Virus record (IMG/VR): IMGVR_UViG_3300010885_054390
Coordinates: 16,255 to 80,254 of that record
Source: a virus
Length of the DNA stretch: 64,000 nt
Strand: one strand, 5' to 3'
Part shown: one piece after another, positions 5,038 to 25,572 of the stretch
How positions within the stretch are numbered: the stretch's first letter is position 1
How the letters are laid out: each line of letters opens with the position of its first letter
The notes under the pieces: model-generated
Seen by the model: only the letters and a program-made list of their open reading frames with translations
The model's database searches: none
Told to the model about the DNA's origin: nothing
Translations under genes and position numbers: made by a program

Positions 5038-5251
5038 ACCCCTTTGGGGTGGTCTTGTACCCCGGGGGTGGACTTAAATAGGCTTGGTTTTTGATTTGTA
5101 AGTCGTTGATGGCCAGAGCCGGGGTGGACTTAAATATACTTACTTAACTTCAAAAAGAGTTTATTATAGTATGTATATGTGTTTTGCTCAGAGCCACGGC
5201 CCCTCCTGCCGGAAAGTCTTTGGGGGTACTTACTAAGTCCGAAGTCCACCC
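5038..5251. repeat. iterated GGGGTGG(A/T)CTT boxes around an AT-rich core; candidate replication origin
   Basis: GGGGTGGACTTAAATA at 5065 and 5121, GGGGTGGTCTT at 5046, inverted AAGTCCACCC at 5242; intergenic, just after primase-helicase and tRNA. Confidence 0.5.
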
Positions 5252-7443: not shown

Positions 7444-8004
7444 TTAACTGCCTTCGGCAGGCTTAACCGACGTTTCGATTGCTATCGAATCCCGAATCTG
7501 ATTCGGATTCGACTTCAAATTGGGATTCGAAGCGAGGAAAGCGACATTGATAATCGGACGATTATCACCTTTAACTTGCTGTGCTTCAATACCATAGACT
7601 GACTTCGCCACACTATGAACCTTGTTCATAGCGTTAAAAGTAGTGTCGACCTCTGAAACTGATACCATTGAACTCTGTTCAATAGCAACGAGGCCTCGGT
7701 CAACCTGTTTCTGCACCCTTTCAAGGTATCGTTTCTGTAAATTAGTAACATTGTCTTCGACAATCGACTGCTGTATTGCAATGGCTCTATTGGCTGTTTG
7801 CTCTAGTATTGCATCTCTCTCCTCGAACCATTTACCTCTTGATACCCAAGAGTTAATGGTTCCCAACTTGAGACCATACTTCTCTGCCAACTGATTGTTA
7901 GTGAGTCTAGTGGTCATGTAAGCAATCTTGACCTGCTCTTTAACGTTCTTCCCAACTCTATAACGTTTCCCGTTATTAGAGTTGCTCTGCTCTGTTAAGC
8001 TCAT
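7444..8004 (-). CDS. small-terminase-like HTH protein
   Basis: N-terminal HTH (TNNQLAEKYGLKLGTINSWVSRGKW), helical middle, C-terminal beta strand IINVAFL; isolated gene opposite the early region. Confidence 0.6.
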   Translation of the reverse strand: MSLTEQSNSNNGKRYRVGKNVKEQVKIAYMTTRLTNNQLAEKYGLKLGTINSWVSRGKWFEERDAILEQTANRAIAIQQSIVEDNVTNLQKRYLERVQKQVDRGLVAIEQSSMVSVSEVDTTFNAMNKVHSVAKSVYGIEAQQVKGDNRPIINVAFLASNPNLKSNPNQIRDSIAIETSVKPAEGS

Positions 8005-8073
8005 CTTCAATCTATGCTACAAAGAGTTAGAACAATAGCAATACCGAAGCACGTTGAATCTTACGCGAGCCTT

Positions 8074-8237
8074 TTAATAGTGTATTGCATTGCAATACTC
8101 TATTAACCCTTGTCAACGAAGCACTTTCCTCTGTAGCAATTACCCCGTTTATATATGACTATTCAGATAGTCATATTTAAACGACTCTGAAAAGCGACGC
8201 CGTTTACCCTTGGATCCTTTAGATCCAAGGATAAACG
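8074..8237. repeat. three long inverted repeats (16-17 bp arms)
   Basis: 8074-8106, 8146-8183 and 8201-8237, each with a single mismatch. Confidence 0.85.
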
Positions 8238-8346
8238 AACAGAATCCTACAGAGAGGCGAACCTATGTCTGCACCAGCTTGCAAGCACCTAGTACGCAAA
8301 AAAGCGTACGTCATAGCGTACACATAACGCGACTTCTCACCTTCGG

Positions 8347-8376
8347 TGTCACCGCCGTTTAACCGACCTCAACCTA
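8347..8376 (+). promoter_or_regulatory. phage-specific bipartite promoter-like motif, copy 1
   Basis: TGTCACC-N15-TCAACCTA, upstream of the first early gene. Confidence 0.75.
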
Positions 8377-8442
8377 TTTAGCGACATCGAAACTTGCCGT
8401 TGGCGAGATCGGCGTCGAACCCAAAAAAGGAAAATCAATAAC

Positions 8443-8541
8443 ATGACAACATACGAACAAGCCTACACGGAACTCTGCGAACTCTTCGGAGTCGACAGCG
8501 ACGAAACCCTTGCCATCAACCCCCCGTACCTAGTGGACTAG
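8443..8541 (+). CDS. small acidic early protein
   Basis: 32-aa ORF MTTYEQAYTELCELFG with AAGGA upstream. Confidence 0.45.
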   Translation: MTTYEQAYTELCELFGVDSDETLAINPPYLVD

Positions 8542-8566
8542 TCCACTACACAAGGAGACCACCACG

Positions 8567-8875
8567 ATGAACCTACCCACCTACAGCGAAGCCGTAGCCA
8601 CGGAGATCAGCACGCTCCGTAAGCGTTTGGAAGTGCTCGAGCAAACCCTTTGCCTCCCTCCGAGGAAAGCCAAAAGCTCCCTCCCAAGCTGGCTGAATGA
8701 CAAAGACCTCCGCTCCCACGAACAGAGGAGAGCCGAGTCCGTTCACTCTGCGACGAAGCTCCGCATAGAGTCTGCCTACGTTGCCATCCTCGAAGGACGC
8801 TCGGCGTCACTCAAGGATTGTGCAAGGGAGCATCGAGTGAGTCGCTCAACCCTAAAAACTGCCTTCAAAAGCTGA
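8567..8875 (+). CDS. early protein with C-terminal HTH-like motif
   Basis: AAGGAG RBS; SLKDCAREHRVSRSTLK HTH-like segment. Confidence 0.6.
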   Translation: MNLPTYSEAVATEISTLRKRLEVLEQTLCLPPRKAKSSLPSWLNDKDLRSHEQRRAESVHSATKLRIESAYVAILEGRSASLKDCAREHRVSRSTLKTAFKS

Positions 8876-8894
8876 ACCAAAGGAGAACATACAC

Positions 8895-8990
8895 ATGACA
8901 CCCGAAGCCCTCGACATCCTAGACACCATCGTAAGAGTAGCGATACCCGTAGTCGTAACTGGCCTATTCGTAGCCTGCTTCCACAGGTGA
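8895..8990 (+). CDS. small membrane peptide
   Basis: AAGGAG RBS; 31 aa with a hydrophobic segment. Confidence 0.45.
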   Translation: MTPEALDILDTIVRVAIPVVVTGLFVACFHR

Positions 8991-9025
8991 AGAAAAGCCC
9001 GAAGCCTTCGACCACCCCATAGGGG

Positions 9026-9055
9026 TGTCACCGAAAGTTTAAACGGCTCAACCTA
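9026..9055 (+). promoter_or_regulatory. bipartite promoter-like motif, copy 2
   Basis: TGTCACC-N15-TCAACCTA; ATG follows after a 6-nt gap. Confidence 0.75.
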
Positions 9056-9061
9056 ATTACC

Positions 9062-9229
9062 ATGAACAACGAAACCGCAACCATCCTCGACGAACTCGAG
9101 CAACGAGTCTCTGATATGTATGTCAGCGACTTGTCTACTGGCGAGAACAAAGGTGCATCACCCTTGGACTACGTCCGCTGGGCAATCGAGGAGATCGAAG
9201 CAAACCACCAACCCATCCTGAAAGGATAA
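9062..9229 (+). CDS. small acidic early protein
   Basis: 55-aa ORF directly after motif copy 2. Confidence 0.55.
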   Translation: MNNETATILDELEQRVSDMYVSDLSTGENKGASPLDYVRWAIEEIEANHQPILKG

Positions 9230-9236
9230 AAAAACC

Positions 9237-9824
9237 ATGAACAAAACCCGCGAACAATGGCTACAGAAGGCAGTCGAAGCACTCGACTCGAAGCTCTTCA
9301 AGCCTAAAAACCTCTCGCTACCCAAACGCATCCGAGTATCCGTCGGATGGCCAGGGGGGCGTGCAGACAGGAGCAAAGCTGTCGGTCAACACTGGAAGCC
9401 AACTGCCTCCTCTGACAACCACCACGAAATCTTCATCTCTCCGAAGATCGCCTCGAACGGACTGGAAGTCCTGTCCACCTTGGCACATGAGCTTGTCCAT
9501 GCACAAGTCTTCGCCGAGTACCCCGACGAAGGCCACGGGAAGAACTTTCGCCGAGTGGCCAACGCCATCGGCCTCGAAGGCGACCCGAAGGTGTGTGGTG
9601 CAGGTGAAAAGCTCCGCAACGGCTTACTCAAGGACTTCATCCTTCTCGAAGGCGATTTCCCCTCGGGAAGCATCGACTTCTCACAGCGGAAGAAGGACAG
9701 CACTCGTCTCATCAAGGCAGAGTGTAAGGCTTGCGGATTCGTAATCCGTACGTCCCGCAAGTGGATTGAGGACATCGGCCTGCCCATCTGCAAGTGTGGC
9801 GGAGATTTCCACGAACCCAAATAA
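9237..9824 (+). CDS. SprT-like zinc metalloprotease
   Basis: TLAHELVH zincin motif, downstream GHGKNF, C-terminal CKAC...CKC zinc ribbon. Confidence 0.8.
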   Translation: MNKTREQWLQKAVEALDSKLFKPKNLSLPKRIRVSVGWPGGRADRSKAVGQHWKPTASSDNHHEIFISPKIASNGLEVLSTLAHELVHAQVFAEYPDEGHGKNFRRVANAIGLEGDPKVCGAGEKLRNGLLKDFILLEGDFPSGSIDFSQRKKDSTRLIKAECKACGFVIRTSRKWIEDIGLPICKCGGDFHEPK

Positions 9825-9837
9825 CCACCCTAAAGGG

Positions 9838-9867
9838 TGTCACCGAAAGTTTAAACGACTCAACCTA
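9838..9867 (+). promoter_or_regulatory. bipartite promoter-like motif, copy 3
   Basis: TGTCACC-N15-TCAACCTA, intergenic. Confidence 0.75.
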
Positions 9868-9896
9868 ATTGGCCAACCGAAAGGAAAACAACGACC

Positions 9897-10985
9897 ATGA
9901 ACCCATACAACCTCACACTCAACCAACTTCGCCAAGAATGTGCGAAGCGTGGCATCGGCTCCCCCAAATGGAGAGCCAACGCCATCGTCGACGAGCTCCG
10001 CTCTGCCCTGCAAACCGCAGATCGTGATACTGGCGACTACACACCCACCCCAACCCCACAGGAGGACACACCATTGAAGACCGAAACCCCCACACCTACA
10101 CCTAGCGGTGACGCATTGGCAAGCACACTGCTCCAAGCCCTGCTCCCTCACCTTCCACAGCAAGGCATCCAAGAGGCTCGAGTACGGCAAATCGTCGCCG
10201 AGATCATCGAAGCACGAAGCCCGAGGGAGGTTCGAGTTGAGCTCCCCTCTGGTGAGAAGGTTGACGTTGGAATTGTGCATCAATCGTTTAACCGCATCCT
10301 GCAAGCTGTCTCCGCAAACATCAGCGGTGGCATCCTGCTCGTCGGCGGTGCTGGTGCAGGGAAGACAACGACCTGCCACAAGGTGGCCGACGCCTTGAAG
10401 CTCCCCTTCCGCACCATCAGTGTGTGTAAGCAAACCACCCTCTCTCACCTCGTCGGCTTTATCAACGTAAGCGGGGAGTATGTAAGCACACCCTTCCGTG
10501 AAGCCTACGAAAAAGGTGGAGTATTCCTCCTCGACGAGTTCGACGCTGGCAATGAGAACGTGGTGCTGGCTCTCAATTCAGCCCTTGCCAACGGCATCTG
10601 CGAGTTCCCCGACAAGCAGATCGAGCGACACAAGGACTTCCGTTGCCTTGCATCGGCCAACACCTACGGCACTGGTGCAACCCTGCAATTCGTCGGTAGG
10701 AATAAGCTCGACGGAGCAACCCTCGACCGCTTCGTGGTCATCGAGCATGACTACGACTCGAAGCTCGAGATCGCCCTTTGCGGGAATGACAAGTGGGCAG
10801 AGCGTGTGGTGAGCATCCGCAAGTCCATCGACAAGCTGGGCATCCGCCACATCGTCAGCCCTCGGGCATCCATCAACGGAGCCAAGCTACTCGCCATCGG
10901 TTGGAAGCAGGCCGAGGTGGAGCAGGCGGTCATCTGGAAGGGCTTGGACAAGAGCGAGGTACAGCGAGTGCTGGCCACCCTCTAA
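9897..10985 (+). CDS. MoxR/CbbQ/CobS-like AAA+ ATPase
   Basis: Walker A GGAGAGKTT, Walker B LLDEFD, ASANT sensor, LDGATLDRF arginine finger. Confidence 0.9.
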   Translation: MNPYNLTLNQLRQECAKRGIGSPKWRANAIVDELRSALQTADRDTGDYTPTPTPQEDTPLKTETPTPTPSGDALASTLLQALLPHLPQQGIQEARVRQIVAEIIEARSPREVRVELPSGEKVDVGIVHQSFNRILQAVSANISGGILLVGGAGAGKTTTCHKVADALKLPFRTISVCKQTTLSHLVGFINVSGEYVSTPFREAYEKGGVFLLDEFDAGNENVVLALNSALANGICEFPDKQIERHKDFRCLASANTYGTGATLQFVGRNKLDGATLDRFVVIEHDYDSKLEIALCGNDKWAERVVSIRKSIDKLGIRHIVSPRASINGAKLLAIGWKQAEVEQAVIWKGLDKSEVQRVLATL

Positions 10986-10988
10986 AGA

Positions 10989-11018
10989 GGTCACCCATCC
11001 ACAACCTACGTCAACCTA
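10989..11018 (+). promoter_or_regulatory. bipartite promoter-like motif, copy 4
   Basis: GGTCACC-N15-TCAACCTA, intergenic. Confidence 0.7.
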
Positions 11019-11046
11019 ACTGCCAACCGAAAGGACAAACCTACCC

Positions 11047-11940
11047 ATGACAACCAAACGTTCCAACGCCTCGGACTCCTCCAAGGCAACACAAGTATTC
11101 CCGCTAACCTTCGAGAAGTTCCTCGAGATTGCGGGAGACCCCGACCCCGACCACAACAGCCGTTACAAGTCTGCGAACCAACAGCCCACGTCCAAGACAT
11201 GGGCAGACGGAGTCGACTACTTCGAGAGCGTAAGGCGTCTCAAGATCGGCTGGCCAGAGGGCGTGAAGAAAGCCCGTGAGTTAAGCTCGAAGCTCTATTC
11301 ACGTTTAAACGCCGAGTACAGCTTCCAACGTGACATCAAGTTCGACACGACTGGTGACTGGTTCGACATCGGACGAGTGCTTGAAGGTGAGCCCGATTGC
11401 TGGGGTTCCGAGATCGAGCTTGACGACGAGTTCTCCAATGACAAGCGTGGGAAGATCGTTCGAGTGGCAGTGAATGTCGGGGCGTCCTGCTCCTATAGCT
11501 CGGAGCAAATCCTCCAACGGGGAGTGTATGCCCTCGCCATCGTCGACCTACTCGAACGACTGGGCAAGAGCGTCGAGCTCACGGCCTCATGCAAGGTGGA
11601 GAAGAACGGCAAAATCTGGGGCTGGGAATTGCCCTTGAAGCAAGCGGGAGAAGAGCTCTCCCTTGACCGAGTGGCACACATCCTCGGTAGCCCTGCTGGC
11701 TTTCGCCGAAGCTGGTTCCGAGTCATCGAGCACACTGACTACCCCGATTGCGGAAGCGGTCTCGGATGCCCTACAGACTGGACGGAGAGCGAGCTCAAGC
11801 AACGTCAGGTGGACATCTACATCGGAGCGTTGTTCTCGGGGAACACCCCTTGGCAGGGCAAGACGGACACGAAGTTCATCATCGAGCAACTGGCCAAGGC
11901 GGGCATCAAGTTAGAGCGTGAGGAGGATGCGAAGGCATAA
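11047..11940 (+). CDS. vWA-like partner of the MoxR-type ATPase (degenerate MIDAS)
   Basis: G.WFDIGRVLEGEPDCW, VRVAVNVGASCS, ALAIVDLLERLG.SVEL; position directly after the AAA+ gene. Confidence 0.65.
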   Translation: MTTKRSNASDSSKATQVFPLTFEKFLEIAGDPDPDHNSRYKSANQQPTSKTWADGVDYFESVRRLKIGWPEGVKKARELSSKLYSRLNAEYSFQRDIKFDTTGDWFDIGRVLEGEPDCWGSEIELDDEFSNDKRGKIVRVAVNVGASCSYSSEQILQRGVYALAIVDLLERLGKSVELTASCKVEKNGKIWGWELPLKQAGEELSLDRVAHILGSPAGFRRSWFRVIEHTDYPDCGSGLGCPTDWTESELKQRQVDIYIGALFSGNTPWQGKTDTKFIIEQLAKAGIKLEREEDAKA

Positions 11941-11994
11941 CGGATTTGGGCAGTGGGTACTGGTGCTCGTGAGGTTCGAATCCTCACGGCATCG
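11926..11994 (+). ncRNA. degenerate tRNA-like element
   Basis: Perfect T arm GTGAGG-TTCGAAT-CCTCAC and partial acceptor GATGC/GCATC; no canonical D or anticodon arm. Confidence 0.35.
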
Positions 11995-12028
11995 GTTAAA
12001 CGAAACACGAAACATAGGAGCACGAACA

Positions 12029-12298
12029 ATGAAAAGTTTTGCATCATTCGAAAAACAATACAAGCCGACCAAGCGTACGCCGACAGCGGACGACCCTAGC
12101 GACGACATCCTCTTCGAAACCTACGGAGAGGACGAACAGCTAGTGCGGAGGACGAACCCGAAGCACGTTTGGACACTGCTCGACGGCGAGCACGAAACAA
12201 TCATCTGTGCTGGTATGCACTTCTGCAACCGCATCAACTACCTCATAACGGAGACCGCATGGGACGATAAAAACCTATGCTTCCGCTATGTCGACTAA
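12029..12298 (+). CDS. conserved phage hypothetical protein
   Basis: AGGAG RBS; FETYGED...VWTLLDG....AGMHF.NRINYLITE pattern. Confidence 0.7.
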   Translation: MKSFASFEKQYKPTKRTPTADDPSDDILFETYGEDEQLVRRTNPKHVWTLLDGEHETIICAGMHFCNRINYLITETAWDDKNLCFRYVD

Positions 12299-12311
12299 AG
12301 GAGAACGAACA

Positions 12312-12521
12312 ATGGACAAATCAATCTACTCACTTGCGGACATTCAAAACATCTGCGACACCCACGAGTGGTCAGCACTCGTAAACATAGGCGGGGGACA
12401 AATAGAGGTGAGCGTTTACGACGATAGCGATGGCTTCGGCGTATTCACCCCCACTGAAATCGATGCGGAGACGTACACCTTTAGGTTGTATGACTGCCCA
12501 TCAAAAGGAGAAAACAAATGA
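12312..12521 (+). CDS. small acidic hypothetical protein
   Basis: AAGGAG RBS. Confidence 0.6.
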   Translation: MDKSIYSLADIQNICDTHEWSALVNIGGGQIEVSVYDDSDGFGVFTPTEIDAETYTFRLYDCPSKGENK

Positions 12522-12676
12522 CACGAGGCGACACACTGCGAAAGATTAGAAAGTTGACGTCATTCAAATCCGACATCGGGTTTGCAAACCTTGGACACGG
12601 AGAGGCAATCAGCCTCATCGAATGCGTCAACAAACTGGCTACACAAGCCCTACAGAAAGGAAAAAAGAAAAAATGA
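12518..12676 (+). CDS. hypothetical protein
   Basis: AAGGAG RBS; ATGA overlaps at both ends. Confidence 0.55.
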   Translation: MTRGDTLRKIRKLTSFKSDIGFANLGHGEAISLIECVNKLATQALQKGKKKK

Positions 12677-13067
12677 AACGAACCATTGAGATCGAAGACA
12701 CCCTCGAGGAGCGGGTGGCGAATGCCATCGAAAGCGTACAAGACGAACTCAAGTCCTACGTCGAACAGAATCCCGAGACTGAAGAGCTCCCATGTTTAAA
12801 CAACGACTTGGACTACAGCGGTGCCATCCATGAGATCGTCGACGGAGCGGTGCCCATCTACACCTACGAGATCGAAACCACATGGTTCCTCCATGCAAGA
12901 GAGCTCGAGAGTGCCTACGAGAATGCGGGGCTCGGAGACAACCCCCGAGAGAACAACGGCATGAGTGCCATCTACTGCTACATCATGGAGCAAGTGCAGG
13001 AATGGTACCACAAACACGGCGAGGAATACTTCGAAAAGCTCCCGAAAGGAAAAAAGAAAAAATGAAA
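12655..13067 (+). repeat. 24-bp direct repeat flanking the ocr-like gene
   Basis: GAAAGGAAAAAAGAAAAAATGAAA at 12655-12678 and 13044-13067. Confidence 0.8.
12673..13065 (+). CDS. ocr: Ocr-like (T7 gp0.3) anti-restriction DNA mimic
   Basis: AIHEIVDGAVPIYTYEI versus T7 Ocr AIHMAADNAVPHYYADI; YENAGL versus FEDSGL; IMEQV versus IYEQL; very acidic. Confidence 0.8.
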   Translation: MKRTIEIEDTLEERVANAIESVQDELKSYVEQNPETEELPCLNNDLDYSGAIHEIVDGAVPIYTYEIETTWFLHARELESAYENAGLGDNPRENNGMSAIYCYIMEQVQEWYHKHGEEYFEKLPKGKKKK

Positions 13068-13220
13068 GACGCAACCCAAATCATCGAGGAGATCGAGGCA
13101 CGACTCCTTGAGTACACAAACCTCGGCATCGATCATGCGAACGACCAGAACGCAGTGAACGAGCTCGAGAGTGCCGTAAACGAACTCCAACACCTACTCG
13201 AATGGATAAAACAAAAATGA
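13062..13220 (+). CDS. hypothetical protein
   Basis: ATGA overlap; acidic, helical. Confidence 0.55.
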   Translation: MKDATQIIEEIEARLLEYTNLGIDHANDQNAVNELESAVNELQHLLEWIKQK

Positions 13221-13435
13221 ATACTATCACGAAATCTGTTCAAGCGTACATCGACCACCGCATCGGAGAAATTAACCGAGAGGTGGCCACGAAGCACGAA
13301 GAAGCGAAGCGTTCACAAGGTGAGCAACTCGGCTACATCCTCGGATGGATAGGCGATTGCCAAGCGAGACGCAGTGAATTGCACGCCGTACAGAGCTTCC
13401 TCCGAAAACTAAACCCTAACCAAGAAAGCGTTTAA
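13217..13435 (+). CDS. hypothetical protein
   Basis: ATGA overlap. Confidence 0.55.
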   Translation: MNTITKSVQAYIDHRIGEINREVATKHEEAKRSQGEQLGYILGWIGDCQARRSELHAVQSFLRKLNPNQESV

Positions 13436-13440
13436 CCACT

Positions 13441-13779
13441 ATGGCTAATGCTAAAACATACAAACTGATGGACGGAGAGAAACGGAATCAGGCGAACCCT
13501 GACACCTTCTCCATCCCCGAACTCAACGAACGAAACAACCTAGCCCTCGACGAGTGCTATGCGAAGCTCGGCTTCGTCATGCCACGGCGAAAAAATAGGG
13601 TATCCGCAGAAAGAATGTGGGTACGAGTGAAGACGAAAGATGCGAAGGGCACCTACACTGGTGAGCTTGCCAACGAGCCAGCCTTCGTACCAAATCTATT
13701 TTTCGGAACGCCCGTCCGCTTCAAGGCGAAGCACGTACTCGACATTCAGATGGTGAAAGAGGAGGACAGCGATGAATAA
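13441..13779 (+). CDS. DUF2314-like protein
   Basis: PDTFSIP...ERMWVRV....G.YTGELANEP motif. Confidence 0.6.
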   Translation: MANAKTYKLMDGEKRNQANPDTFSIPELNERNNLALDECYAKLGFVMPRRKNRVSAERMWVRVKTKDAKGTYTGELANEPAFVPNLFFGTPVRFKAKHVLDIQMVKEEDSDE

Positions 13780-13957
13780 GACCTACACTGACGAACAAGT
13801 AAACGCGATCTGCGAGGAGTGGGGATGGAGTGCCTGCGAATGCTCGAACGAATACGAGAACAGCATTCAAGTATGCACCCATCGTCACGACGACTACTTC
13901 GGCAGATTCAATAAAATCACTGACGGAACCTACAACTTCGAACTAAAGGACGTTTAA
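13772..13957 (+). CDS. hypothetical protein
   Basis: GAGGA RBS; resembles the 12312 ORF in pattern. Confidence 0.55.
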   Translation: MNKTYTDEQVNAICEEWGWSACECSNEYENSIQVCTHRHDDYFGRFNKITDGTYNFELKDV

Positions 13958-13959
13958 CC

Positions 13960-14145
13960 ATGAACAAACCAGTCAACAGATACCTCATCGACTTGGTAAA
14001 GTTTACCGAGCGACTTCGGGAACTGCGGGACAGCGATGCGAACCCTTGTAACGAGGAGAACGCAGAGGGCTTGTGCCCCTGCCACACCTTCGACCAAGCC
14101 ATCGATCAACTCGAGAACGTGCAAAGCATTCTCAAAACTCTGTAA
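13960..14145 (+). CDS. hypothetical protein
   Basis: AAGGA RBS. Confidence 0.55.
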   Translation: MNKPVNRYLIDLVKFTERLRELRDSDANPCNEENAEGLCPCHTFDQAIDQLENVQSILKTL

Positions 14146-14157
14146 AAAAAATCACCT

Positions 14158-14391
14158 ATGATGATATACACACAGGGAAACGCAAAGACTTCGGACGGAA
14201 CACCAGCCTCCGTGCTTACTCGCCCCAAGCCACACGGCTTCGGCATACCACCCGAGCATTTGGCCAAGGCCGACCGCTATGTGGTGCTGGTAACAGACAT
14301 CCGCGACCGCGAACCTCCGCATTCACTATGTGAGCTGTACGAGGCCGAAGCGTTTAAACCTTATTACTCGGAACGCATCGATCAACACTAA
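14158..14391 (+). CDS. hypothetical protein
   Basis: 77-aa ORF in the early operon. Confidence 0.5.
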   Translation: MMIYTQGNAKTSDGTPASVLTRPKPHGFGIPPEHLAKADRYVVLVTDIRDREPPHSLCELYEAEAFKPYYSERIDQH

Positions 14392-14440
14392 CAACTTTTC
14401 GTGGGACAAGACGTTGCAAATCAACGCAAAACCCCCCGAA

Positions 14441-14470
14441 TGTCACCGAAACTAAACACACCTCAACCTA
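14441..14470 (+). promoter_or_regulatory. bipartite promoter-like motif, copy 5
   Basis: TGTCACC-N15-TCAACCTA, then AAGGA and ATG at 14481. Confidence 0.75.
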
Positions 14471-14480
14471 AAGGACAACC

Positions 14481-14987
14481 ATGAGCAACAACGAAAAACC
14501 AAACAACGACGAAACAAACGAAGCACAGAGACAAGCACGCCTCGAGGAGATCGGGAAGTGCATCACCGACTTCGTGAACGATGACCGCACTCCCGCCATA
14601 CTCAAGTGGGGCTTACAGATTCTCTTCATCGCTACGTCCGATGACGACACGAAGAGCGGAGTAGTAGGCGGTTTGCTGGCCTGCGGGCACAGAGCCTTCG
14701 ACAACGCAATCTCCAAATCGCGAGAGGAGGGCAACGAAGCCTTGGCCAAGAAGCTCGAGAAAGATAAGAACGACATGATTAAGCTCGCCCTTCAAGTCGA
14801 CTTCCGTGGTGCGGTAACCTCCGTACTGCGAACGAAGCTGGGCGAGATTGCAGACGATGGCGAGGAGGCCGAGGAGGCACCCTCCCCGAAGGTGATAGTA
14901 GTCGAGCAAAAGAAACCAGTATCGGAGGACAACGTACTGCTACCCAAGCAGAAGAAGGAACCAAATCCCTTTGCAGGGAGGAACTAA
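14481..14987 (+). CDS. hypothetical protein
   Basis: 168-aa ORF with RBS. Confidence 0.7.
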   Translation: MSNNEKPNNDETNEAQRQARLEEIGKCITDFVNDDRTPAILKWGLQILFIATSDDDTKSGVVGGLLACGHRAFDNAISKSREEGNEALAKKLEKDKNDMIKLALQVDFRGAVTSVLRTKLGEIADDGEEAEEAPSPKVIVVEQKKPVSEDNVLLPKQKKEPNPFAGRN

Positions 14988-14988
14988 C

Positions 14989-15204
14989 ATGAGATTACAG
15001 ACAAAAGAACAAATCCAAGACTGGCTCAAGAGCTACAAGAAGAACGATTCATTTGCGATTCTCTTTTGGACAAAGGACGAGATAGAAGAAAACCTTGGAC
15101 GTAAGATCAAGGAGACGGAGTGGAAAAGAGCGGTCAATGCCGTTGACTCCGACAGCGAAGAGCAGGTGCTCGGGGAAAACATCGAAGAGCACTTGAGCGT
15201 CTAA
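14989..15204 (+). CDS. hypothetical protein
   Basis: GGAGG RBS. Confidence 0.6.
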   Translation: MRLQTKEQIQDWLKSYKKNDSFAILFWTKDEIEENLGRKIKETEWKRAVNAVDSDSEEQVLGENIEEHLSV

Positions 15205-15316
15205 CGAGATGACGAGTGGGCAGACATCATTTGCGATGGCTGAAAAGGTTGGTTGCGATGTAACCTCCGCAATCAATCGTTCCCTACTTGTCGTTTAACC
15301 GAGAGGAAACACTAAC

Positions 15317-15493
15317 ATGAAGTACATTGTATTTGCCGAGAACACGACCTACTACTCGATGGAGGTAGAGGCCAATAGTGCGGATGAAGCAAACAAGATT
15401 GCCGAGCAGAGCGACGGAGCCGACTGGACGGAAGACTCCACAGGCAAATGGATTGTAAGCGACGAGCTCACTTGTAGGAAACCAAACAACTAG
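15317..15493 (+). CDS. small acidic protein (DpnD/PcfM-like VEA.S.DEA motif)
   Basis: GAGGA RBS; MKY.V....Y.MEVEANSADEA. Confidence 0.5.
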   Translation: MKYIVFAENTTYYSMEVEANSADEANKIAEQSDGADWTEDSTGKWIVSDELTCRKPNN

Positions 15494-15506
15494 GAAAATA
15501 AAAACT

Positions 15507-15716
15507 ATGCAAATTATACGCAAATCACCAGTCAGTCTCAAAATCCAATCGATGCACCTCGACATCAGCGAGCTTCAATGGACTCGGTACCTGCGAGGAG
15601 ATGGTTTGATTCAAGATATATTTCCAAACTTAACCGCCGATGAGCGGGAGTTTATTAAATCAGGCATAACCAACGAGGAGTGGAAAATCCTCTTTGAACC
15701 AACGGAGGAAAGTTAA
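15507..15716 (+). CDS. conserved phage hypothetical protein
   Basis: LIQDIFPNLTADEREFIKSGIT.EEW motif. Confidence 0.65.
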   Translation: MQIIRKSPVSLKIQSMHLDISELQWTRYLRGDGLIQDIFPNLTADEREFIKSGITNEEWKILFEPTEES

Positions 15717-15717
15717 A

Positions 15718-15918
15718 ATGATATTCGAACGTGGAGAATATAAAGGCAACCCAACACTAATCATCAAGCGAGACGAGCGGGACAGATTTCCCTTTAGTCT
15801 CGGACTACGGAAGGCGGAGATGCTCCTCCAAACAGAGGTGCAAAACCAACTCGAGAAGTTTGTGCTTGAACACAAGGTTGACGATGGGCTTGAGAACAAT
15901 GATGGCGAACACGCATGA
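15718..15918 (+). CDS. conserved hypothetical protein
   Basis: EYKGNPTL.....DRFPFSLGLRKA motif; GGAGG RBS. Confidence 0.6.
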   Translation: MIFERGEYKGNPTLIIKRDERDRFPFSLGLRKAEMLLQTEVQNQLEKFVLEHKVDDGLENNDGEHA

Positions 15919-16136
15919 GTAGCCTCATAAACAAGCGGATGTTCAAGACGTACTTGCTTTCGCTATCGAAGGTAAATGCGGACAAACGCAACGAGGCTCG
16001 AAGGGAGATGGGGATACTTGCCAACCTAAAGCCCCACTCCCGAGTCTCAAAGGAAACCTACGACAACGCAACCGCCCATCTAATCAACTGGATGAAGGCA
16101 CACATCATCGAAAAGAAAAAAGGAAAAACATTATGA
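15915..16136 (+). CDS. hypothetical protein
   Basis: ATGA overlaps. Confidence 0.55.
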   Translation: MSSLINKRMFKTYLLSLSKVNADKRNEARREMGILANLKPHSRVSKETYDNATAHLINWMKAHIIEKKKGKTL

Positions 16137-16699
16137 ATAAAACACCTACAACCGAATCACGAAAGCACAAGGGCATATCACCCGACCAAAAGAAAGCCAT
16201 CGAAACCTACGAAAAACTTTGTTCGGAGAAAGACAAGGGCGAACTCTCCTTCGAAACCTCCAACAAAGCAAGAGAGTTTCTATACAAGTACAACCAAGAA
16301 TGCTTGTTTAAACACTTCCGCAAGATCAAGGCCAAGCAGGCCGAGATAACCTTCGATGGCTCGGGAGACAGCGGGCAGATCGAAAGCTCCTCCATCGATG
16401 GGAAGCACTTCATCAAGAACTCCAAGAAAAGCGGGATTGTAGAGGGCTTTATTAGCCACACTTGCACCACCTTTCTTGAAGAAGGTGGACTGCAACACGG
16501 ATGGAATACAAAGGTATGCCTTTACGAAGCCATCGAAGACTACTGCTACAACATCCTTGAGAGCGAACACGGAGGCTGGGAGATCAACGCAGGTTCCTTT
16601 GGAGAGTTTGTTCTCGACGCCCGAGGAGATGAACTTGTAACAAAGCTCACCATGAACGAACGCTACGAAGACGTAACAACTTCGGAGGAGACCTACTAA
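16133..16699 (+). CDS. DUF6878-like protein
   Basis: ITFDGSGDSGQIE and GGWEINAGSFGEF motifs. Confidence 0.75.
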   Translation: MNKTPTTESRKHKGISPDQKKAIETYEKLCSEKDKGELSFETSNKAREFLYKYNQECLFKHFRKIKAKQAEITFDGSGDSGQIESSSIDGKHFIKNSKKSGIVEGFISHTCTTFLEEGGLQHGWNTKVCLYEAIEDYCYNILESEHGGWEINAGSFGEFVLDARGDELVTKLTMNERYEDVTTSEETY

Positions 16700-17124
16700 T
16701 GGCCAATCCCTACCACCACGCAGTAAGCTCCGCAAAGAAGTGGGGCGGGAAGCCCGAGGACTACCAGAAAATCCACGACTGGTTTGACGAATCAAAGATG
16801 ATGATGGCGGACTTCCGACATCGTGCCTTGCGTCACCACGCCGAGGGATGCTTCATGGCGGAACGAATCTTCGGGAACACCATCACCAACAGCGATGGAC
16901 GGAAGGTTCCGACTCGGTGGGTAGCCGAGCAACACGTCAAGGAAGACCTTGGGCGTATCCCTTCTATGCAAGACTGGTTTGTGCACATATCAGCCAAGCC
17001 TTGGATGGGGGCTACGCAGAAGCTGGACGCCGAAAAGATTGGCTCGGGCGTTCCGCATAGCTTAATCGGGCATACCTTTGTATGCCTACCACCAACAAAA
17101 AAAGGAAGAGGGAAAAGAAAATGA
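16699..17124 (+). CDS. DUF6915-like protein
   Basis: MANPYHHAVSSAKKWGG.PEDY..IHDWFDESK...RHRALRHH; usual neighbour of DUF6878. Confidence 0.8.
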   Translation: MANPYHHAVSSAKKWGGKPEDYQKIHDWFDESKMMMADFRHRALRHHAEGCFMAERIFGNTITNSDGRKVPTRWVAEQHVKEDLGRIPSMQDWFVHISAKPWMGATQKLDAEKIGSGVPHSLIGHTFVCLPPTKKGRGKRK

Positions 17125-17579
17125 ACATCAAAACATTCTTAAATAAACATCTATCGAAGAGACTCAAGGCCGAGTGCAACCGCTTGGGCGAACGTTACCG
17201 CAAGCTGGAAGCCAAGGACGAAGAAACGGGCTCTGACTCTTTCCACGGCTCCGATGAGCCAAGCGAAATCAGAGATCGGATTATCAATATGATGGCTCCT
17301 TCGGTTAAACGCTACGCCAAAAACCTGTTCAACAATCCAGTCGACAAGGACGAAGATAGCTTTGAGTTCTTTGACTCCTTGGGCAATGACCAGCTAGAAG
17401 TCTTCTGCATCAGGCGTGGCAAAAAAGGATGGGTGGCAAGCGTTTCAACTAACTACTGGGACGCCCCCGCAGATACCTGCGACGACTCCACCTGCGTGCC
17501 TACACCAGCGGAAGCCTTCGAGTGGGGCTTTGGCGACGCAATGGCTTACCACTTCATCAACGAGAAAGTAGGAAGATAA
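17121..17579 (+). CDS. hypothetical protein
   Basis: ATGA overlap. Confidence 0.6.
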   Translation: MNIKTFLNKHLSKRLKAECNRLGERYRKLEAKDEETGSDSFHGSDEPSEIRDRIINMMAPSVKRYAKNLFNNPVDKDEDSFEFFDSLGNDQLEVFCIRRGKKGWVASVSTNYWDAPADTCDDSTCVPTPAEAFEWGFGDAMAYHFINEKVGR

Positions 17580-17582
17580 TAT

Positions 17583-17840
17583 ATGAGCAAAACATTACTT
17601 GGCCGAGAGTTTAAAAACATCCCGACTGGCGACCTAGTCAAGCTAGTGCATGACAAGCATCAGGAGCTTAACAAGTACCCGAACAGCACCCGCATTCGAA
17701 TGGAGTTTAACTTCTCAACGCAAGAGCTGTGGAAGCGAGGCTGGAAACTCGAATACGTTACGACCCTTAAACTGCACCCGCCCCGCAAGGAACGCAGCGA
17801 AAGGTTTGTGACGTTTAAACAAAAGGAGGCCGTGGCATGA
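17583..17840 (+). CDS. hypothetical protein
   Basis: ORF in operon. Confidence 0.6.
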   Translation: MSKTLLGREFKNIPTGDLVKLVHDKHQELNKYPNSTRIRMEFNFSTQELWKRGWKLEYVTTLKLHPPRKERSERFVTFKQKEAVA

Positions 17841-18238
17841 ACAGCAAAGACTTCAACCTAAAGTTTCGAAAGGAAATCCAGACCCTCAACTTCGTATACC
17901 GAAGCACGTTCTTTGTTCACTGGTTCCTTCGCAGGTTCATCTTCGAAGGCGTCTTCGCGGGGAACGCTGACTTTAACGGCAACTCCGTAAGCGTAATCAG
18001 CGTGCCCGTTTTAAGGTTTTTCCTAGCCGACCTCGAGCGTCTTGTCATAAACTTGCACGACGAGATAGCTCGCATGAACAACTCACTCCCAAAGAAAATG
18101 CGTATACCTTTGAAGCTCCCCATCTACGAGAGCTACGCCAAGCTCAAGGCAAAGTCCGAGGCGAAGGCACGGCGGAACTCCAAAGTTTTAGTATCGTTTA
18201 ACCATGAGACCAGCGACGGAACAGGCATGAATGACTGA
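17837..18238 (+). CDS. hypothetical protein
   Basis: AGGAGG RBS; ATGA overlap. Confidence 0.6.
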   Translation: MNSKDFNLKFRKEIQTLNFVYRSTFFVHWFLRRFIFEGVFAGNADFNGNSVSVISVPVLRFFLADLERLVINLHDEIARMNNSLPKKMRIPLKLPIYESYAKLKAKSEAKARRNSKVLVSFNHETSDGTGMND

Positions 18239-18500
18239 CCTCGAACCTATCCCCTCGAGAAAGAGATGCCCCTCCTGCCAGCAGGAAACACTGGAAGGCG
18301 GAATAATAGACGACTACGTTGCCAACATCCGAGGCTTTGAGATCGTAATCCGAAACATAGAAAGAGACCGATGCTCTAACTGCGGGGAGCAGTGCTACGC
18401 TTGGAGCCAATGCCTCAAGATCGACCAAGCAATCAGAGACGCTAGGAAAGCGGGGGTACGGCACGACATCGGGCTGTACGACTTTCGTTTGGACGACTAA
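18231..18500 (+). CDS. YgiT/MqsA-type zinc-finger protein (no HTH)
   Basis: CPSC...IVIRNI....CSNCGE. Confidence 0.65.
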   Translation: MTDLEPIPSRKRCPSCQQETLEGGIIDDYVANIRGFEIVIRNIERDRCSNCGEQCYAWSQCLKIDQAIRDARKAGVRHDIGLYDFRLDD

Positions 18501-18544
18501 AAATAATCGTTGTCCTTTGCAGAATACGTGATAGTAATCGATTC

Positions 18545-18742
18545 ATGGCACAGCACAAACACTACGAAGTAAGGGTTCCTCGGAGCCACGTTGAAGTCCA
18601 CAAGGTTGTGGCGGAAGACGAAGCACACGCCAAGCGTTGTGTGCTGAACGGCGAGTCGCAAGACGTAAACGTTGAGCTTGCCCCCTACAAGTCCGCCGAC
18701 GAAACCAGCACCTCCGATTGGTCAGTATCCGAAGTATTGTGA
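18545..18742 (+). CDS. hypothetical protein
   Basis: 65-aa ORF with V.AEDE..A motif. Confidence 0.55.
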   Translation: MAQHKHYEVRVPRSHVEVHKVVAEDEAHAKRCVLNGESQDVNVELAPYKSADETSTSDWSVSEVL

Positions 18743-18980
18743 AGCAACTTCGTTTGGAGTTCTGCGAAAGCCTAAAGTGCTGGGTTGTTAAAAACGGCAA
18801 GTGGCGTTTTGGGCACAGAGTATTTAGAGATAAAGCCAAAGCCGAAAAGTTTCTCAAAGAAATTACCCTTAAAAAATAACTCCGCTGCTGCGTTTAGACG
18901 CTGTTTCTTTGGCATCCCGAAACAAGTTTTGCTCAAAAATCAACCGCAAGTCTTTGTGTATCAATTTAAAACCCTCGAAA

Positions 18981-19010
18981 TGTCACCGAAACACGGGCGA
19001 CCTCAACCTA
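18981..19010 (+). promoter_or_regulatory. bipartite promoter-like motif, copy 6
   Basis: TGTCACC-N15-TCAACCTA; ATG follows after a 6-nt gap. Confidence 0.75.
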
Positions 19011-19016
19011 TGTGGC

Positions 19017-19301
19017 ATGGCAACCGAAGGTAAACTAAAGTCCGCAAGGCTCGCCGAGACCACCCGCTCTATGGCCAAGCTAATTCAACTCGCCCTAGTT
19101 CGCCTTGGGGCTGACCCCAGTGCCCTTGTCGCAAGAAAGACTGACCTTCGAGGCTCGAAGGGCGGGCTCACCTTCGGCGAGCTCATGTACTGGTTAGCCT
19201 TTTCAATAAATGCCCTCGAGTTTAAATGCAAAAAGATTTTACCAGCAAACGAAGCCATACAAAGAATCCAGAGATGGAAGAAAGTGAAAACAATACTATG
19301 A
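19017..19301 (+). CDS. hypothetical basic protein
   Basis: ATG 19017 directly after motif copy 6. Confidence 0.55.
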   Translation: MATEGKLKSARLAETTRSMAKLIQLALVRLGADPSALVARKTDLRGSKGGLTFGELMYWLAFSINALEFKCKKILPANEAIQRIQRWKKVKTIL

Positions 19302-19615
19302 AAACAGCACACGCAACCGCAGAAGAACAACAAGCACAGAATATACTTGATATGCAAAAGGCAAGCCAGTTCCTCAACTGCCATCGGGGACGCTACATCA
19401 TCGGACGGGCTCTCTACGAGACGTACCAAAAGGTGAAGGACGAGGAGCCCTCGGACGCAGCGGACATGAAGTTTCTCGGGGAGACTTTGTTCCAAATCGG
19501 CTGGCTCTCCGCCTTTGTGATGAAGGATAGAAACGTCATCAAGCAACAAATGGATAGCATTCGCAAGCACCTCAAAACAGCGGGGAAACGGAAAACTAAA
19601 ATTGGAAAGGCATAA
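19298..19615 (+). CDS. hypothetical protein
   Basis: ATGA overlap. Confidence 0.6.
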   Translation: MKTAHATAEEQQAQNILDMQKASQFLNCHRGRYIIGRALYETYQKVKDEEPSDAADMKFLGETLFQIGWLSAFVMKDRNVIKQQMDSIRKHLKTAGKRKTKIGKA

Positions 19616-19619
19616 TTTT

Positions 19620-19865
19620 ATGGTACCTAAATTAGACTTGCTGAAAGAAGCCTGCGGACACTACCTTTCCTCTTGGACTGGAACCAAGACTGGCGAGGAG
19701 ATTCTTGAGGCCGTTACCAAGGGCAACTCGGAGGTAGAGGTTTGGCAACCCTTCGAAAACTGGTCGCCCGAAAACTTGGCCGAACAGATCGAAGTTACCG
19801 CAGAATCACTCACCAACCTCTACAAAGAAGCCTATGAACATGGAAAGGAGTCCGCAACCAAATGA
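19620..19865 (+). CDS. hypothetical protein
   Basis: ORF in operon. Confidence 0.55.
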   Translation: MVPKLDLLKEACGHYLSSWTGTKTGEEILEAVTKGNSEVEVWQPFENWSPENLAEQIEVTAESLTNLYKEAYEHGKESATK

Positions 19866-20131
19866 ATAAAGCGATCTTACTATTACTAGCCATCGGAGCC
19901 TCGGCGAAAGCAAACCCGCCGACCATTATCGGGCAGGGCGGAGAATACTTGGGCACACTATCCGCTAACCCCTTTGAGCCCTCGAGCACATCTAATCCCT
20001 ACGGATTATATGGGAGCGAATACAGCCCAGTCAGCTTGAGTGACCCCTTCGGAGCCTTCGGGAGCCCCTACAGCACCGAGTCCGCTACCAACGAATACTT
20101 GGTCAGCGAAACATTGGAGCTCGATAAATGA
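19862..20131 (+). CDS. secreted protein with (N/D)P(Y/F)G..GS.YS repeats
   Basis: Signal peptide ending ASAKA; NPYGLYGSEYS and DPFGAFGSPYS repeats. Confidence 0.65.
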   Translation: MNKAILLLLAIGASAKANPPTIIGQGGEYLGTLSANPFEPSSTSNPYGLYGSEYSPVSLSDPFGAFGSPYSTESATNEYLVSETLELDK

Positions 20132-20559
20132 AGGGTAAAAAAACGAAGCTCGAAGCAATTCTAGTTGACCCCGTTGAAAGAAGCATAAGCCTTGTTCCGC
20201 ATGGCGAGGACTTGGACGAGGTGTATGCAACCATAGGCTGCGATACCATCTGTGCCACACAAATGCCGTTTAACCACACAATGTTCTTGGACGACAACGG
20301 ACTTTGCCGACCCTTGAAAGAGATTAACCAACGTGGCCTCTTTTATATGGATGGAGCAAAACAGCCCTTCGCGGGCAAGGGACTGATTTTTCATTCCACC
20401 GCTGACGGAGGATTGGAATCGTGCTTCCTGCTTGTCGAGCAAGTGGAAGAGTTGATTCGTTGGAGGCCGAAGAGCCAACCAATGACAGAATCCGAGAAAC
20501 GGATTGCAACTCAAATACAAATCATCCCCTTTGGAGGTATTAGAAATCCTAATGAATAA
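20128..20559 (+). CDS. DUF3846-like protein
   Basis: AILVDP...IGCDTI...FLDDNGL...PFAGKGL pattern. Confidence 0.55.
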   Translation: MKGKKTKLEAILVDPVERSISLVPHGEDLDEVYATIGCDTICATQMPFNHTMFLDDNGLCRPLKEINQRGLFYMDGAKQPFAGKGLIFHSTADGGLESCFLLVEQVEELIRWRPKSQPMTESEKRIATQIQIIPFGGIRNPNE

Positions 20560-21001
20560 TAGACTACTCAAATTGAAGCGTAACTGGCTCAAAGCGGACA
20601 AAGTTGCCAAAACTCTTACCCGCAAGAAATGGGCTATCTACCGCAAGACAAGTTCTGCCTATAACAAAGTGACCTCAATAGAGAGCGCCTACCAAGACTT
20701 GTTTGTTAAAAGCCTAGTCAAAACCGAAGAGCCGACAACTTCCGATAGGCTACGTGAAATCGGGCGACTACTCACAGCTAATAAGCTGGCTTGGTCGGTT
20801 TTCCGCAAGACCGACAGCGAAAGAGGCTCTCATTATCGTATAACCATTCGAGGAAACAAAAACGTCTCGAGAATTACGAAAAGTTTTCTCGGGGTACAGC
20901 TATCCGCCTTTGCGGATGATGAAATCCAACGTTGCCTCGATGAGGAGAAGGCTACGCTCACTTACATTGTTGGAATCTATGAGGAGGTTGAAAATGAATA
21001 A
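20552..21001 (+). CDS. hypothetical protein
   Basis: ORF in operon. Confidence 0.6.
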   Translation: MNNRLLKLKRNWLKADKVAKTLTRKKWAIYRKTSSAYNKVTSIESAYQDLFVKSLVKTEEPTTSDRLREIGRLLTANKLAWSVFRKTDSERGSHYRITIRGNKNVSRITKSFLGVQLSAFADDEIQRCLDEEKATLTYIVGIYEEVENE

Positions 21002-21353
21002 TAGAGACGAATACGAAGATGATCTAAGGGAGCAGTGTAAGTGGGACGAGTTCAGGGCTAGACAACTAGACAGGGAGGACAGGGCGAATCAGACAGGCGA
21101 CTACGCCCCAAAGGACGCCGAAGGAAAAGGCTGGACTCCGTCTTACTCGGACATAGAGTGGACTAAACAGCTAATAAACAGCCTAAAAGAAGGGGGCACA
21201 TGGCTTGTCCCCGCCAACAAGTCTATTTGGACTTTTCGGCAAGAGGCCAAGGAAGCCCACCTAACATCAGGGGACGCCAATGAAGAAACAAACTCCCGCA
21301 TCAAAACAATCCTTCAAGAATACTTGGGGTACAACATCTTGGTATCTCAGTGA
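20994..21353 (+). CDS. hypothetical protein
   Basis: GAGGAGG RBS. Confidence 0.6.
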   Translation: MNNRDEYEDDLREQCKWDEFRARQLDREDRANQTGDYAPKDAEGKGWTPSYSDIEWTKQLINSLKEGGTWLVPANKSIWTFRQEAKEAHLTSGDANEETNSRIKTILQEYLGYNILVSQ

Positions 21354-21571
21354 GCAACTTAGGTTCCCCCGTACTTCTTCGGCACAAGGCCAAGGCTTGT
21401 CTCGAGGAGTCCGAGATGTCTTTGGCTCTGGAAAGCCTATCGGGTCTTCAACAGAGACACAAAATGCTGGAAGAAAACCTACAACTTACTCAGAAACTGC
21501 TTTTCAGCTACCTTTCGACCACTCGAAAGCTGGCCGAGGAGATAGCCGTCCTCCGAAAAAACAGACGATAG
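21350..21571 (+). CDS. coiled-coil hypothetical protein
   Basis: GTGA overlap; heptad pattern. Confidence 0.5.
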   Translation: MSNLGSPVLLRHKAKACLEESEMSLALESLSGLQQRHKMLEENLQLTQKLLFSYLSTTRKLAEEIAVLRKNRR

Positions 21572-21990
21572 CCTTCCTTGTTTCGCTTGTAGCCTTGCTC
21601 TTCTACCCTTCTTTTGCCACCACAAAGGAAAGCATTCCCGTAGAAGCAGTTAAACAGGTCAAAAGACCCCGGGCAGTAAAACATCGTTTAACCGTTTATT
21701 ACCCCGGGGAAGATCAATGGACTTCAAAGTGCCAAAGTTCTAGCGGGTATACCTTAAAAAATGGGGTCAGCATTGCCACCGATCAGAAGCTCTATGACTA
21801 TGGGGATAAGGTGTTTATCGAAGGCTTGGGCGAAAGGATTGTGCACGACACGGGCACAGCCGTACGCGAACGCAGAGCTAGTGGTGGCAGGTACCCGATC
21901 ATTGACGTTTTCTTTAAATCAAAGGCCGAGGCCATTCGCTTTTCGAATCAGGTAAAATACGCAAACGTCTACCTTGTTGACAATAAGTGA
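21550..21990 (+). CDS. 3D-domain (MltA-like) peptidoglycan lytic protein; start uncertain
   Basis: LTVYY...SIATD....YG.KVFIEGLGERIVHDTG.AV...IIDVFF; hydrophobic leader IAFLVSLVALLF; frame is open from 21280 but that part overlaps other genes. Confidence 0.7.
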   Translation, partial: PPKKQTIAFLVSLVALLFYPSFATTKESIPVEAVKQVKRPRAVKHRLTVYYPGEDQWTSKCQSSSGYTLKNGVSIATDQKLYDYGDKVFIEGLGERIVHDTGTAVRERRASGGRYPIIDVFFKSKAEAIRFSNQVKYANVYLVDNK

Positions 21991-22041
21991 TAGTATAAAT
22001 GCCTTGACCATTTGGAGGTTACACAGCAAAGTAATCGCCCA

Positions 22042-23916: not shown

Positions 23917-23918
23917 GC

Positions 23919-24473: not shown

Positions 24474-24544
24474 TTTTGTCGGCCTTCTTTTGCTTATTTG
24501 CCGAGCCCTTTTCTTTGCTTTATGGGTTGTCAGTTCCGTTTTTC

Positions 24545-25273: not shown

Positions 25274-25274
25274 A

Positions 25275-25535: not shown

Positions 25536-25544
25536 ATTGACTTT

Positions 25545-25572
25545 AGTGTAAAATCGAGAATACTAGTGTCAA
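25545..25572 (-). promoter_or_regulatory. sigma70-type promoter
   Basis: TTGACA-16-TACACT on the - strand, 10 nt before ATG 25535. Confidence 0.55.

Follow-up and report, generated by a model that had tools for sequence, protein, structure and literature searches.

A probable phage-private class of sigma-type promoters, defined by six invariant bipartite sites, in the accessory gene block of an uncultivated phage

In the genome of an uncultivated phage, six copies of a two-box sequence, GTCACC-N15-TCAACCTA, lie ahead of genes in a rightward accessory block, and they probably represent a phage-private class of sigma-type promoters, with a new consensus, that serves this block. The analyzed stretch of DNA, referred to here as the window, is 64,000 nt long and corresponds to bases 16255-80254 of the IMG/VR record IMGVR_UViG_3300010885_054390 (80,254 bp, rated complete); all coordinates are positions in the window. 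We found six exact matches to GTCACC-N15-TCAACCTA in the window, all of them on the + strand and starting at positions 8348, 9027, 9839, 10990, 14442 and 18982. These are the six copies announced in an earlier reading of this DNA (the original prediction), each located one base to the right of the coordinate given there. No match was obtained in 100 dinucleotide-preserving shuffles (0 expected), and the full 80,254-bp record contained the same six copies only, with none on the reverse strand and none for a control pattern. When three mismatches were tolerated, just two extra sites were recovered, a number within chance. On the + strand there are seven occurrences of the box TCAACCTA, of which only one is outside the motif. 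The scan of the whole phage that the original prediction had suggested was carried out with a position-weight matrix built from the six sites, which scored them at 55-68 bits and the next best genome position at -9; therefore, the six sites form a discrete class, with no weaker copies behind them.

Conservation is selective for the boxes. Pairwise identity among the six sites is 1.00 over both boxes (14 of 14 positions) and 0.44 over the spacer, while it ranges from 0.28 to 0.50 in the 15-nt flanks and the first downstream bases; taken together, spacer and flanks cover a range of 23-50%. The spacer is 15 nt long at every site, and the fixed spacing and the invariant 8-nt box that had been described are both present; in contrast, the description of the spacer as variable is only partly correct, since GAAA is found at its start in four of the six copies. 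The spacers of sites 2 and 3 are one base apart. Roughly, the extended consensus consists of a C-rich tract, TGTCACCGAaa, variable bases, and acCTCAACCTAa. The base preceding GTCACC is T in five of the sites (TGTCACC) and G at site 4 only, and it is at this base that the 30-nt unit of the repeat family D1 begins. On the 3' side, the 6th base past the box is C in all six sites and the 7th is A in four of them. Some pairs of copies are alike over longer stretches, with an identity of 91% in 43 nt for sites 2 and 3 and of 76% in 46 nt for sites 5 and 6; the 5' leader CCAACCGAAAGGA is common to sites 3 and 4. Judging by these identities, some of the copies (2/3 and 5/6) are recent duplicates.

The promoter reading is based on the position and orientation of the sites, on the box-selective conservation just described, and on an internal control provided by the genome itself. 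As had been claimed, the six sites precede genes on the + strand: all of them are intergenic and run in gene direction, 4-102 nt past the previous stop codon and 35-95 nt ahead of the next start codon. In every copy GTCACC is followed by 17 bp and AACCTA or, alternatively, by 16 bp and CAACCT; hence, the sites show the hexamer distance of 16-18 bp expected for the sigma70 family, and they are upstream of genes, co-directional with them, and outside coding sequence. The conservation is bipartite, in agreement with the contrast drawn earlier with contiguous T7-type promoters, and we did not find a contiguous block of ~20-23 bp together with a T7-like polymerase gene. An ATG is located exactly 6 nt after the box in copies 2 and 6, as previously pointed out, and the gaps at the other sites are 10, 28, 29 and 66 nt. 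Counted from this ATG, GTCACC occupies positions -35 to -30 and AACCTA positions -12 to -7 at sites 2 and 6, and GTCACC starts at -39 from the ATG at site 5. The C-A pair that follows the box resembles a typical -1/+1 pair. Transcription initiating 5-9 nt past a -10 element would fit both the C-A at the 6th-7th base and the ATG at 6 nt, and this lends the promoter reading indirect support.

For the internal control, we examined the occurrence of TTGAC within 120 nt upstream of 87 gene starts. Nine of the 17 occurrences are positioned at -34 to -39, when only about 0.9 would be expected in a 6-nt window. These nine TTGAC sequences are succeeded by TAATTT, TAGAAAT, TACAAT or TAGTACT, which is separated from the start codon by 6-8 nt. 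From their sequence, they look like housekeeping-type (sigma70-like) promoters that give rise to leaderless mRNAs, and they are mostly located in the structural block. The six sites share the geometry of these TTGAC leaderless promoters but have different boxes, which is the strongest support for the promoter reading; in combination with position, orientation and box conservation, the -35/-10 geometry proposed in the original prediction is well supported. A scan of the accessory block with the housekeeping-type consensus yielded 14 sites versus 13 expected, that is, no enrichment. The TTGAC fronts include 40289-40294, 49762-49767, 52921-52926 and 63642-63647 on the - strand, and five more, three of them within the initial 16 kb of the record. 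The leaderless set suggests that the host translates leaderless mRNA well. No Shine-Dalgarno match was detected in about half of the remaining genes, mainly structural ones.

We propose that the six sites are read by the host core RNA polymerase associated with a specificity factor that is not the housekeeping sigma. GTCACC would be the -35 element, and the -10 hexamer would lie within TCAACCTA, the hexamer being AACCTA (-12 to -7) or, in another reading, CAACCT, in which A-11 and T-7 are present. The conserved C-A located about 6-7 nt past the box is the predicted start of transcription, and the six promoters would drive the 17-kb rightward accessory, probably early, block as nested transcription units. 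Two of these units would be leaderless, starting on the ATG, one would have a leader of ~4 nt, and in the remaining three a GAAAGGA ribosome-binding site would lie within a leader of 22-60 nt. What we observe directly is the pattern in the sequence, its geometry and its gene context; where transcription starts, when it occurs and which factor is involved are inferred. The leader GAAAGGA-N11-ATG forms the repeat family D2, found at 9213-9241, 9873-9901, 11023-11051, 12649-12677 and 13038-13066. GAAAGGA is far from the ATG, a distance compatible with its pairing to the very 3' end of the 16S rRNA (UCCUUUC), as in many Gram-positive bacteria.

Several observations weigh against the promoter reading. 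Given that sites 2/3 and 5/6 are recent duplicates, the six copies do not amount to six independent observations. The -10 box matches none of the sigma specificities with which it was compared, and the sigma models Sigma70_r2, r4 and TIGR02937 (Pfam and NCBIfam) had no match in the six frames.

The individual sites differ in their distance to the following gene and in their surroundings. Site 1 (8348-8376, + strand), the first of the block, is located 66 nt upstream of ATG 8443 and is accompanied by a 4-bp hairpin at 8338-8348. At site 2 (9027-9055, +) the next gene starts at ATG 9062, with GTCACC beginning at -35, so that the mRNA is predicted to be leaderless; a hairpin at 9013-9027, with a 6-bp stem and an ATA loop, abuts the -35 box, and the spacer contains GTTTAAAC. 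Site 3 (9839-9867, +) lies 14 nt after the stop codon of the SprT-like gene and 29 nt before ATG 9897 of the AAA ATPase gene, with a hairpin at 9826-9839. Site 4 (10990-11018, +) is placed 4 nt after the stop codon of the AAA ATPase gene and 28 nt before ATG 11047 of the DUF7192 gene; CGTC is present at its -10 box only, and the other sites have CTCA. At site 5 (14442-14470, +) the ATG at 14481 is 10 nt downstream, and the predicted leader is ~4 nt; on its upstream side, the similarity to site 6 extends over 46 nt. Finally, site 6 (18982-19010, +) precedes ATG 19017, and a leaderless mRNA encoding a 94-aa product is predicted. The called start of this protein is the ATG 6 nt after the site, both here and in 85%-identical relatives, and its homologues in related contigs have the same length and the same start. 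Altogether, hairpins abut four of the six sites, upstream of the -35 box, and they are weak (z -0.2 to -1.9); none was found at sites 5 and 6, where they were also looked for. The palindrome GTTTAAAC occurs at 34 genome positions, for example at 9037, 9849, 11303, 12794 and 14352 in the window. At sites 2 and 3 a copy falls exactly within the spacer, and GTTTAAC is found at site 1; hence, binding of a protein to this palindrome could interfere with the promoters at sites 2 and 3, as well as at site 1.

Regarding the enzyme, PF00940 gave no match in the six frames, in a search for which the control genomes were uninformative. The motif DxDGD was absent from the large proteins, and the looser DxDxD gave two chance-like matches, both outside the 3,795-aa open reading frame (ORF) described below. 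Since no phage RNA polymerase was found, the host core polymerase is the likely enzyme. A T7-type or two-barrel phage polymerase was rejected on the basis of these results, namely the lack of a PF00940 match and of the catalytic aspartate motif in the large proteins. A canonical phage sigma was also rejected: the sigma models gave nothing except a single r4_2 match (E 0.015), which corresponds to the helix-turn-helix (HTH) of a 188-aa small-terminase-like protein encoded by a leftward gene. Our first idea, derived from the 3,795-aa ORF, had been that of an N4-like phage with hairpin promoters; it was discarded because this ORF has the polyvalent LPD38 domain and no polymerase match in PHROGs, Pfam or PDB, and also because the hairpins, which two sites lack, are weak and not in the right place.

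The 3,795-aa ORF (25947-37334, - strand) matches large uncharacterized PHROG families, the Pfam domain LPD38 (E 3e-36) and, weakly, ART-PolyVal; according to these matches, it encodes a virion protein of the polyvalent type described by Iyer et al. 2017 (PMC5512222). This protein is probably injected. One cassette of this protein, encoded at 33084-34226 on the - strand, has a sigma-2-like stretch in its first ~135 residues and is a candidate reader of the six sites. The cassette had no match in Pfam and PDB sequence searches, and a HMMER scan of 1.84 billion cluster representatives recovered only itself and two relatives. A structural model was built from the alignment of these three sequences, with low confidence (mean pLDDT, the predicted local distance difference test score, of 50.6). 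In this model, residues 33-136 align with sigma-2 domains, including 5uxx_C (Z-score 6.2), 5zx2_F (5.9), 6dv9_F (5.5) and 1h3l_B (5.2), and about ten further sigma-2 alignments were obtained, among them fragments of SigE, SigW, sigma28, SigI and RpoS. All of the structural matches of the cassette have Z-scores of 6.3 or less, a range that is unremarkable for helical domains. Additionally, its language-model features pointed to viral Sigma70_r2 clusters (score 0.90, 19 of 30 matches). When the C-terminal half was folded alone (pLDDT 61.8), its best matches were unrelated helical proteins with Z-scores of 4.9 or less, and the sigma-H structure 3mzy appeared at rank 34 with a Z-score of 3.7; neither a sigma-4 nor another DNA-binding fold was seen in this half as modeled. 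A sigma-2-like module in the polyvalent protein is plausible, with no counterpart seen in the cassette, such as a sigma-4, that would read the -35 box.

As to what reads the six sites, we lean toward a factor supplied by the phage over an alternative sigma of the host, because the 14 box positions are invariant and there are no weak copies. A specific form of this idea, which we advance tentatively, is that the sigma-2-like cassette enters the cell with the DNA, binds the host core polymerase and reads the six sites; the cassette would possibly be cut out at Gly-Ala-Ala junctions, and the sites would be immediate-early and independent of the host sigma. The polyvalent domains of the giant ORF, the alignment of the cassette to many sigma-2 domains, the language-model pointers, and the fact that no other sigma is encoded are in line with this proposal, and the distribution of the promoters, with housekeeping-type promoters at the structural genes and not at the accessory block, fits a factor arriving with the DNA. 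On the other side are the modest Z-scores on a three-sequence model, the null sequence searches, and the C-terminal half that does not account for the -35 box. Just as tentative is the notion that the sites match a host alternative sigma (ECF-type, for extracytoplasmic function, or group 3) that is active on infection and was borrowed by the phage. The geometry is that of ECF promoters, the phage has no recognizable sigma, and the TCAAC core of the box resembles the RpoE-type -10 element. In contrast, host regulons are usually degenerate and the boxes are not, ECF sigmas are normally kept inactive by anti-sigmas, and a search for the exact 19-base motif in 185,579 species genomes retrieved one chance match, located in a coding region. 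The general ECF (group 4) signature is also missing, as there is no AAC core in the -35 box and only site 4 has CGTC in its -10 box. Under autoregulation, an ECF promoter precedes the operon of the sigma and its anti-sigma; neither the block nor the rest of the genome contains a match to the sigma family. The original proposal of a non-housekeeping sigma, either delivered by the phage or a host ECF, is partly supported: the layout is of the sigma type, and the boxes lack the usual ECF signatures (AAC and CGTC). A literature search for the boxes gave a sole match, the paper on ECF41, whose promoter, TGTCACA-n16(+/-1)-CGTC, is found next to the genes of the ECF41 sigma and its partner (Wecke et al. 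2012, PMC3426412). Like this promoter, the sites are bipartite, and their -35 sequence TGTCACC, present in five of six, is one base away from TGTCACA, which speaks for a host factor; they differ from it in the -10 box, which is TCAACCTA, and in the distance from the 7-mer to the -10 core, which is 14-15 nt instead of 16 +/- 1, and no ECF41 sigma or partner gene adjoins them.

Less probable than either of these explanations is that CAACCT serves as a weak -10 element for the housekeeping holoenzyme of the host, assisted by a phage protein bound to GTCACC or, in a variant of this idea, that the boxes are operator sites for a repressor. The protein could be the product of the first sizeable gene after site 1 (8567-8875, +), a helical protein of 102 aa with a C-terminal HTH-like segment that is a candidate early regulator; its Pfam assignments are limited to HTH_30 (E 0.04) and LacI (E 0.15), which weakens the case. 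A housekeeping-type promoter-like site, TTGTCA-N18-TAGCAAT (8110-8140, +), points into the block from upstream of site 1 and could express its first genes, including that of the HTH protein; with this weak candidate, missed by the consensus scan, no special factor may be needed to start the block. At the middle promoters of T4, MotA binds in place of the -35 contact. With respect to such promoters (an activator box near -30 plus TAnnnT), the hexamer here has A-11 and T-7 when it is read as CAACCT, which favors an activator, but T-12 is missing. Moreover, the eight bases of TCAACCTA are all invariant, unlike what is expected when sigma70 reads a -10 element, and the boxes are neither palindromic nor direct repeats, unlike most regulator sites. 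We consider it very unlikely that the sites are promoters of an unrecognized phage RNA polymerase, or that they are not promoters and represent recombination joints between cassettes or an RNA processing signal. Hairpins abutting four sites, the flanks shared by pairs of sites, as duplicated cassettes would have, and the existence of several large unannotated virion proteins could be explained in this way. Nevertheless, neither a T7-type domain nor a catalytic aspartate motif is present in the large proteins, the promoters of single-subunit polymerases are contiguous and not bipartite, and the hairpins are absent or weak. The two boxes are not mutually complementary, an RNA element is difficult to reconcile with a start codon only 6 nt past the box at two sites, and the geometry shared with the TTGAC class would have to be a coincidence.

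Sigma-dependent promoter classes are known in several phages, such as the middle promoters of SPO1 (gp28), those of phiEco32 (gp36), and the late promoters of T4, TATAAATA, read by gp55. The six sites are similar to them in having a near-invariant private consensus before one gene class, in forming a discrete set without weak copies, and in the use, proposed here, of the host core with a non-housekeeping factor. Phage-specific sigma-type promoters are thus a known kind; what is new, and distinguishes the sites from these examples, is the consensus together with the absence of a recognizable sigma gene in the genome. The order found in the classical phage cases is also reversed, given that the private class is on the accessory, probably early, block and the structural genes have housekeeping-type promoters. 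Cassettes composed of a T4-type early promoter plus a stem-loop (PeSL), with sigma70 early promoters, were reportedly described by Arbiol and colleagues in 2010. As in these cassettes, a short stem-loop is found directly before the promoter, the arrangement is repeated among small early ORFans, and there are signs of duplication; in contrast, the boxes here are non-housekeeping, and the stem-loop is present at four of the six sites only. The early promoters of N4 are hairpins read by an injected virion RNA polymerase (PMC4496689). The giant virion-protein gene and the repeated sites with hairpins of 3-4-nt loops before early genes are reminiscent of this phage, but the giant ORF has no polymerase domain, the hairpins are ~45 nt upstream of the predicted start and not at -12, and two sites lack them. 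Hence, the N4-type combination of a 5-7-bp stem with a 3-nt loop near -12 and a virion polymerase gene was not found.

For an uncultivated phage lineage in which neither an RNA polymerase nor a sigma gene is recognizable, the six sites provide a clean set of promoters. If the cassette of the polyvalent protein reads them, the phage would inject a sigma, whereas N4 injects a polymerase and T4 injects a polymerase modifier (Alt), and the accessory genes would be expressed before, and independently of, any host sigma, an outcome of great interest. The finding is ordinary if the sites are read by an alternative sigma of the host. Orthogonal bipartite promoters with an invariant consensus would be useful parts for synthetic biology.

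Among cultured phages, none is a near relative. Neither a megablast of the region against cultured phages nor a tblastn with the large terminase gave a match, the DNA polymerase has at most 26% identity to anything cultured, and the SprT-like protein is nearest to actinophage proteins (~40% identity). Closer homologues were found on two contigs: that of the 94-aa protein on a 79.7-kb contig (85% identity) and that of the polyvalent protein on a 69-kb contig (55% identity). Queries of IMG/VR with the AAA ATPase, P0004 and P0006 revealed no relatives among the entries returned. In the same database, the 14-base pattern gave single chance matches only, and the exact 19-base pattern gave none.

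The genome is organized in three blocks. The leftward structural block extends from the large terminase to the polyvalent protein, and the rightward replication block includes a helicase, an exonuclease, a family A DNA polymerase (748-2580), a primase-like protein and a tRNA-Tyr at 4944. Two leftward genes then follow, one of which encodes the small-terminase-like HTH protein (7444-8010, 188 aa). The rightward accessory block (8443-25950, +) carries the six sites within its first 10.7 kb. Its products comprise the SprT-like protein, an AAA (CobS-like) ATPase, the DUF7192 protein, a methyltransferase, 2-oxoglutarate-Fe(II) (2OG-Fe(II)) oxygenases, a nucleoside deoxyribosyltransferase-like protein, many small ORFans and, by a weak match (E 2.7e-4), an Ocr-like protein; no structural or replication genes are present. 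Because of the Ocr-like and SprT-like proteins, the ORFans, and the lack of structural and replication genes, the label of early fits, and a role of the block in host takeover is plausible from its gene content.

Other sequence features were observed to the left of the accessory block. Two exact copies of GGGTGGACTTAAATA (5066-5080 and 5122-5136, +) are separated by 56 nt, with an inverted partial copy near 5240; the pair is in the 327-nt gap between the tRNA-Tyr and a DUF5856 (Dps-like) gene, and when treated as a 3-mismatch family it lacks significance. A palindrome with an 18-bp stem (8200-8238) and a hairpin with a 7-bp stem (8304-8323) are located between the terminase-like gene and site 1, each followed by a T-run on the - strand; by their sequence, these structures look like leftward terminators or a packaging site. 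Downstream of the two leftward genes, the non-coding segment 7255-7335 contains a run of 12 T and, ~30 nt on, a 30-nt G-rich tract (GGGGCGGGGGTGGGGGCGGGAGGGGG), which may represent a genome end or a structural DNA element.

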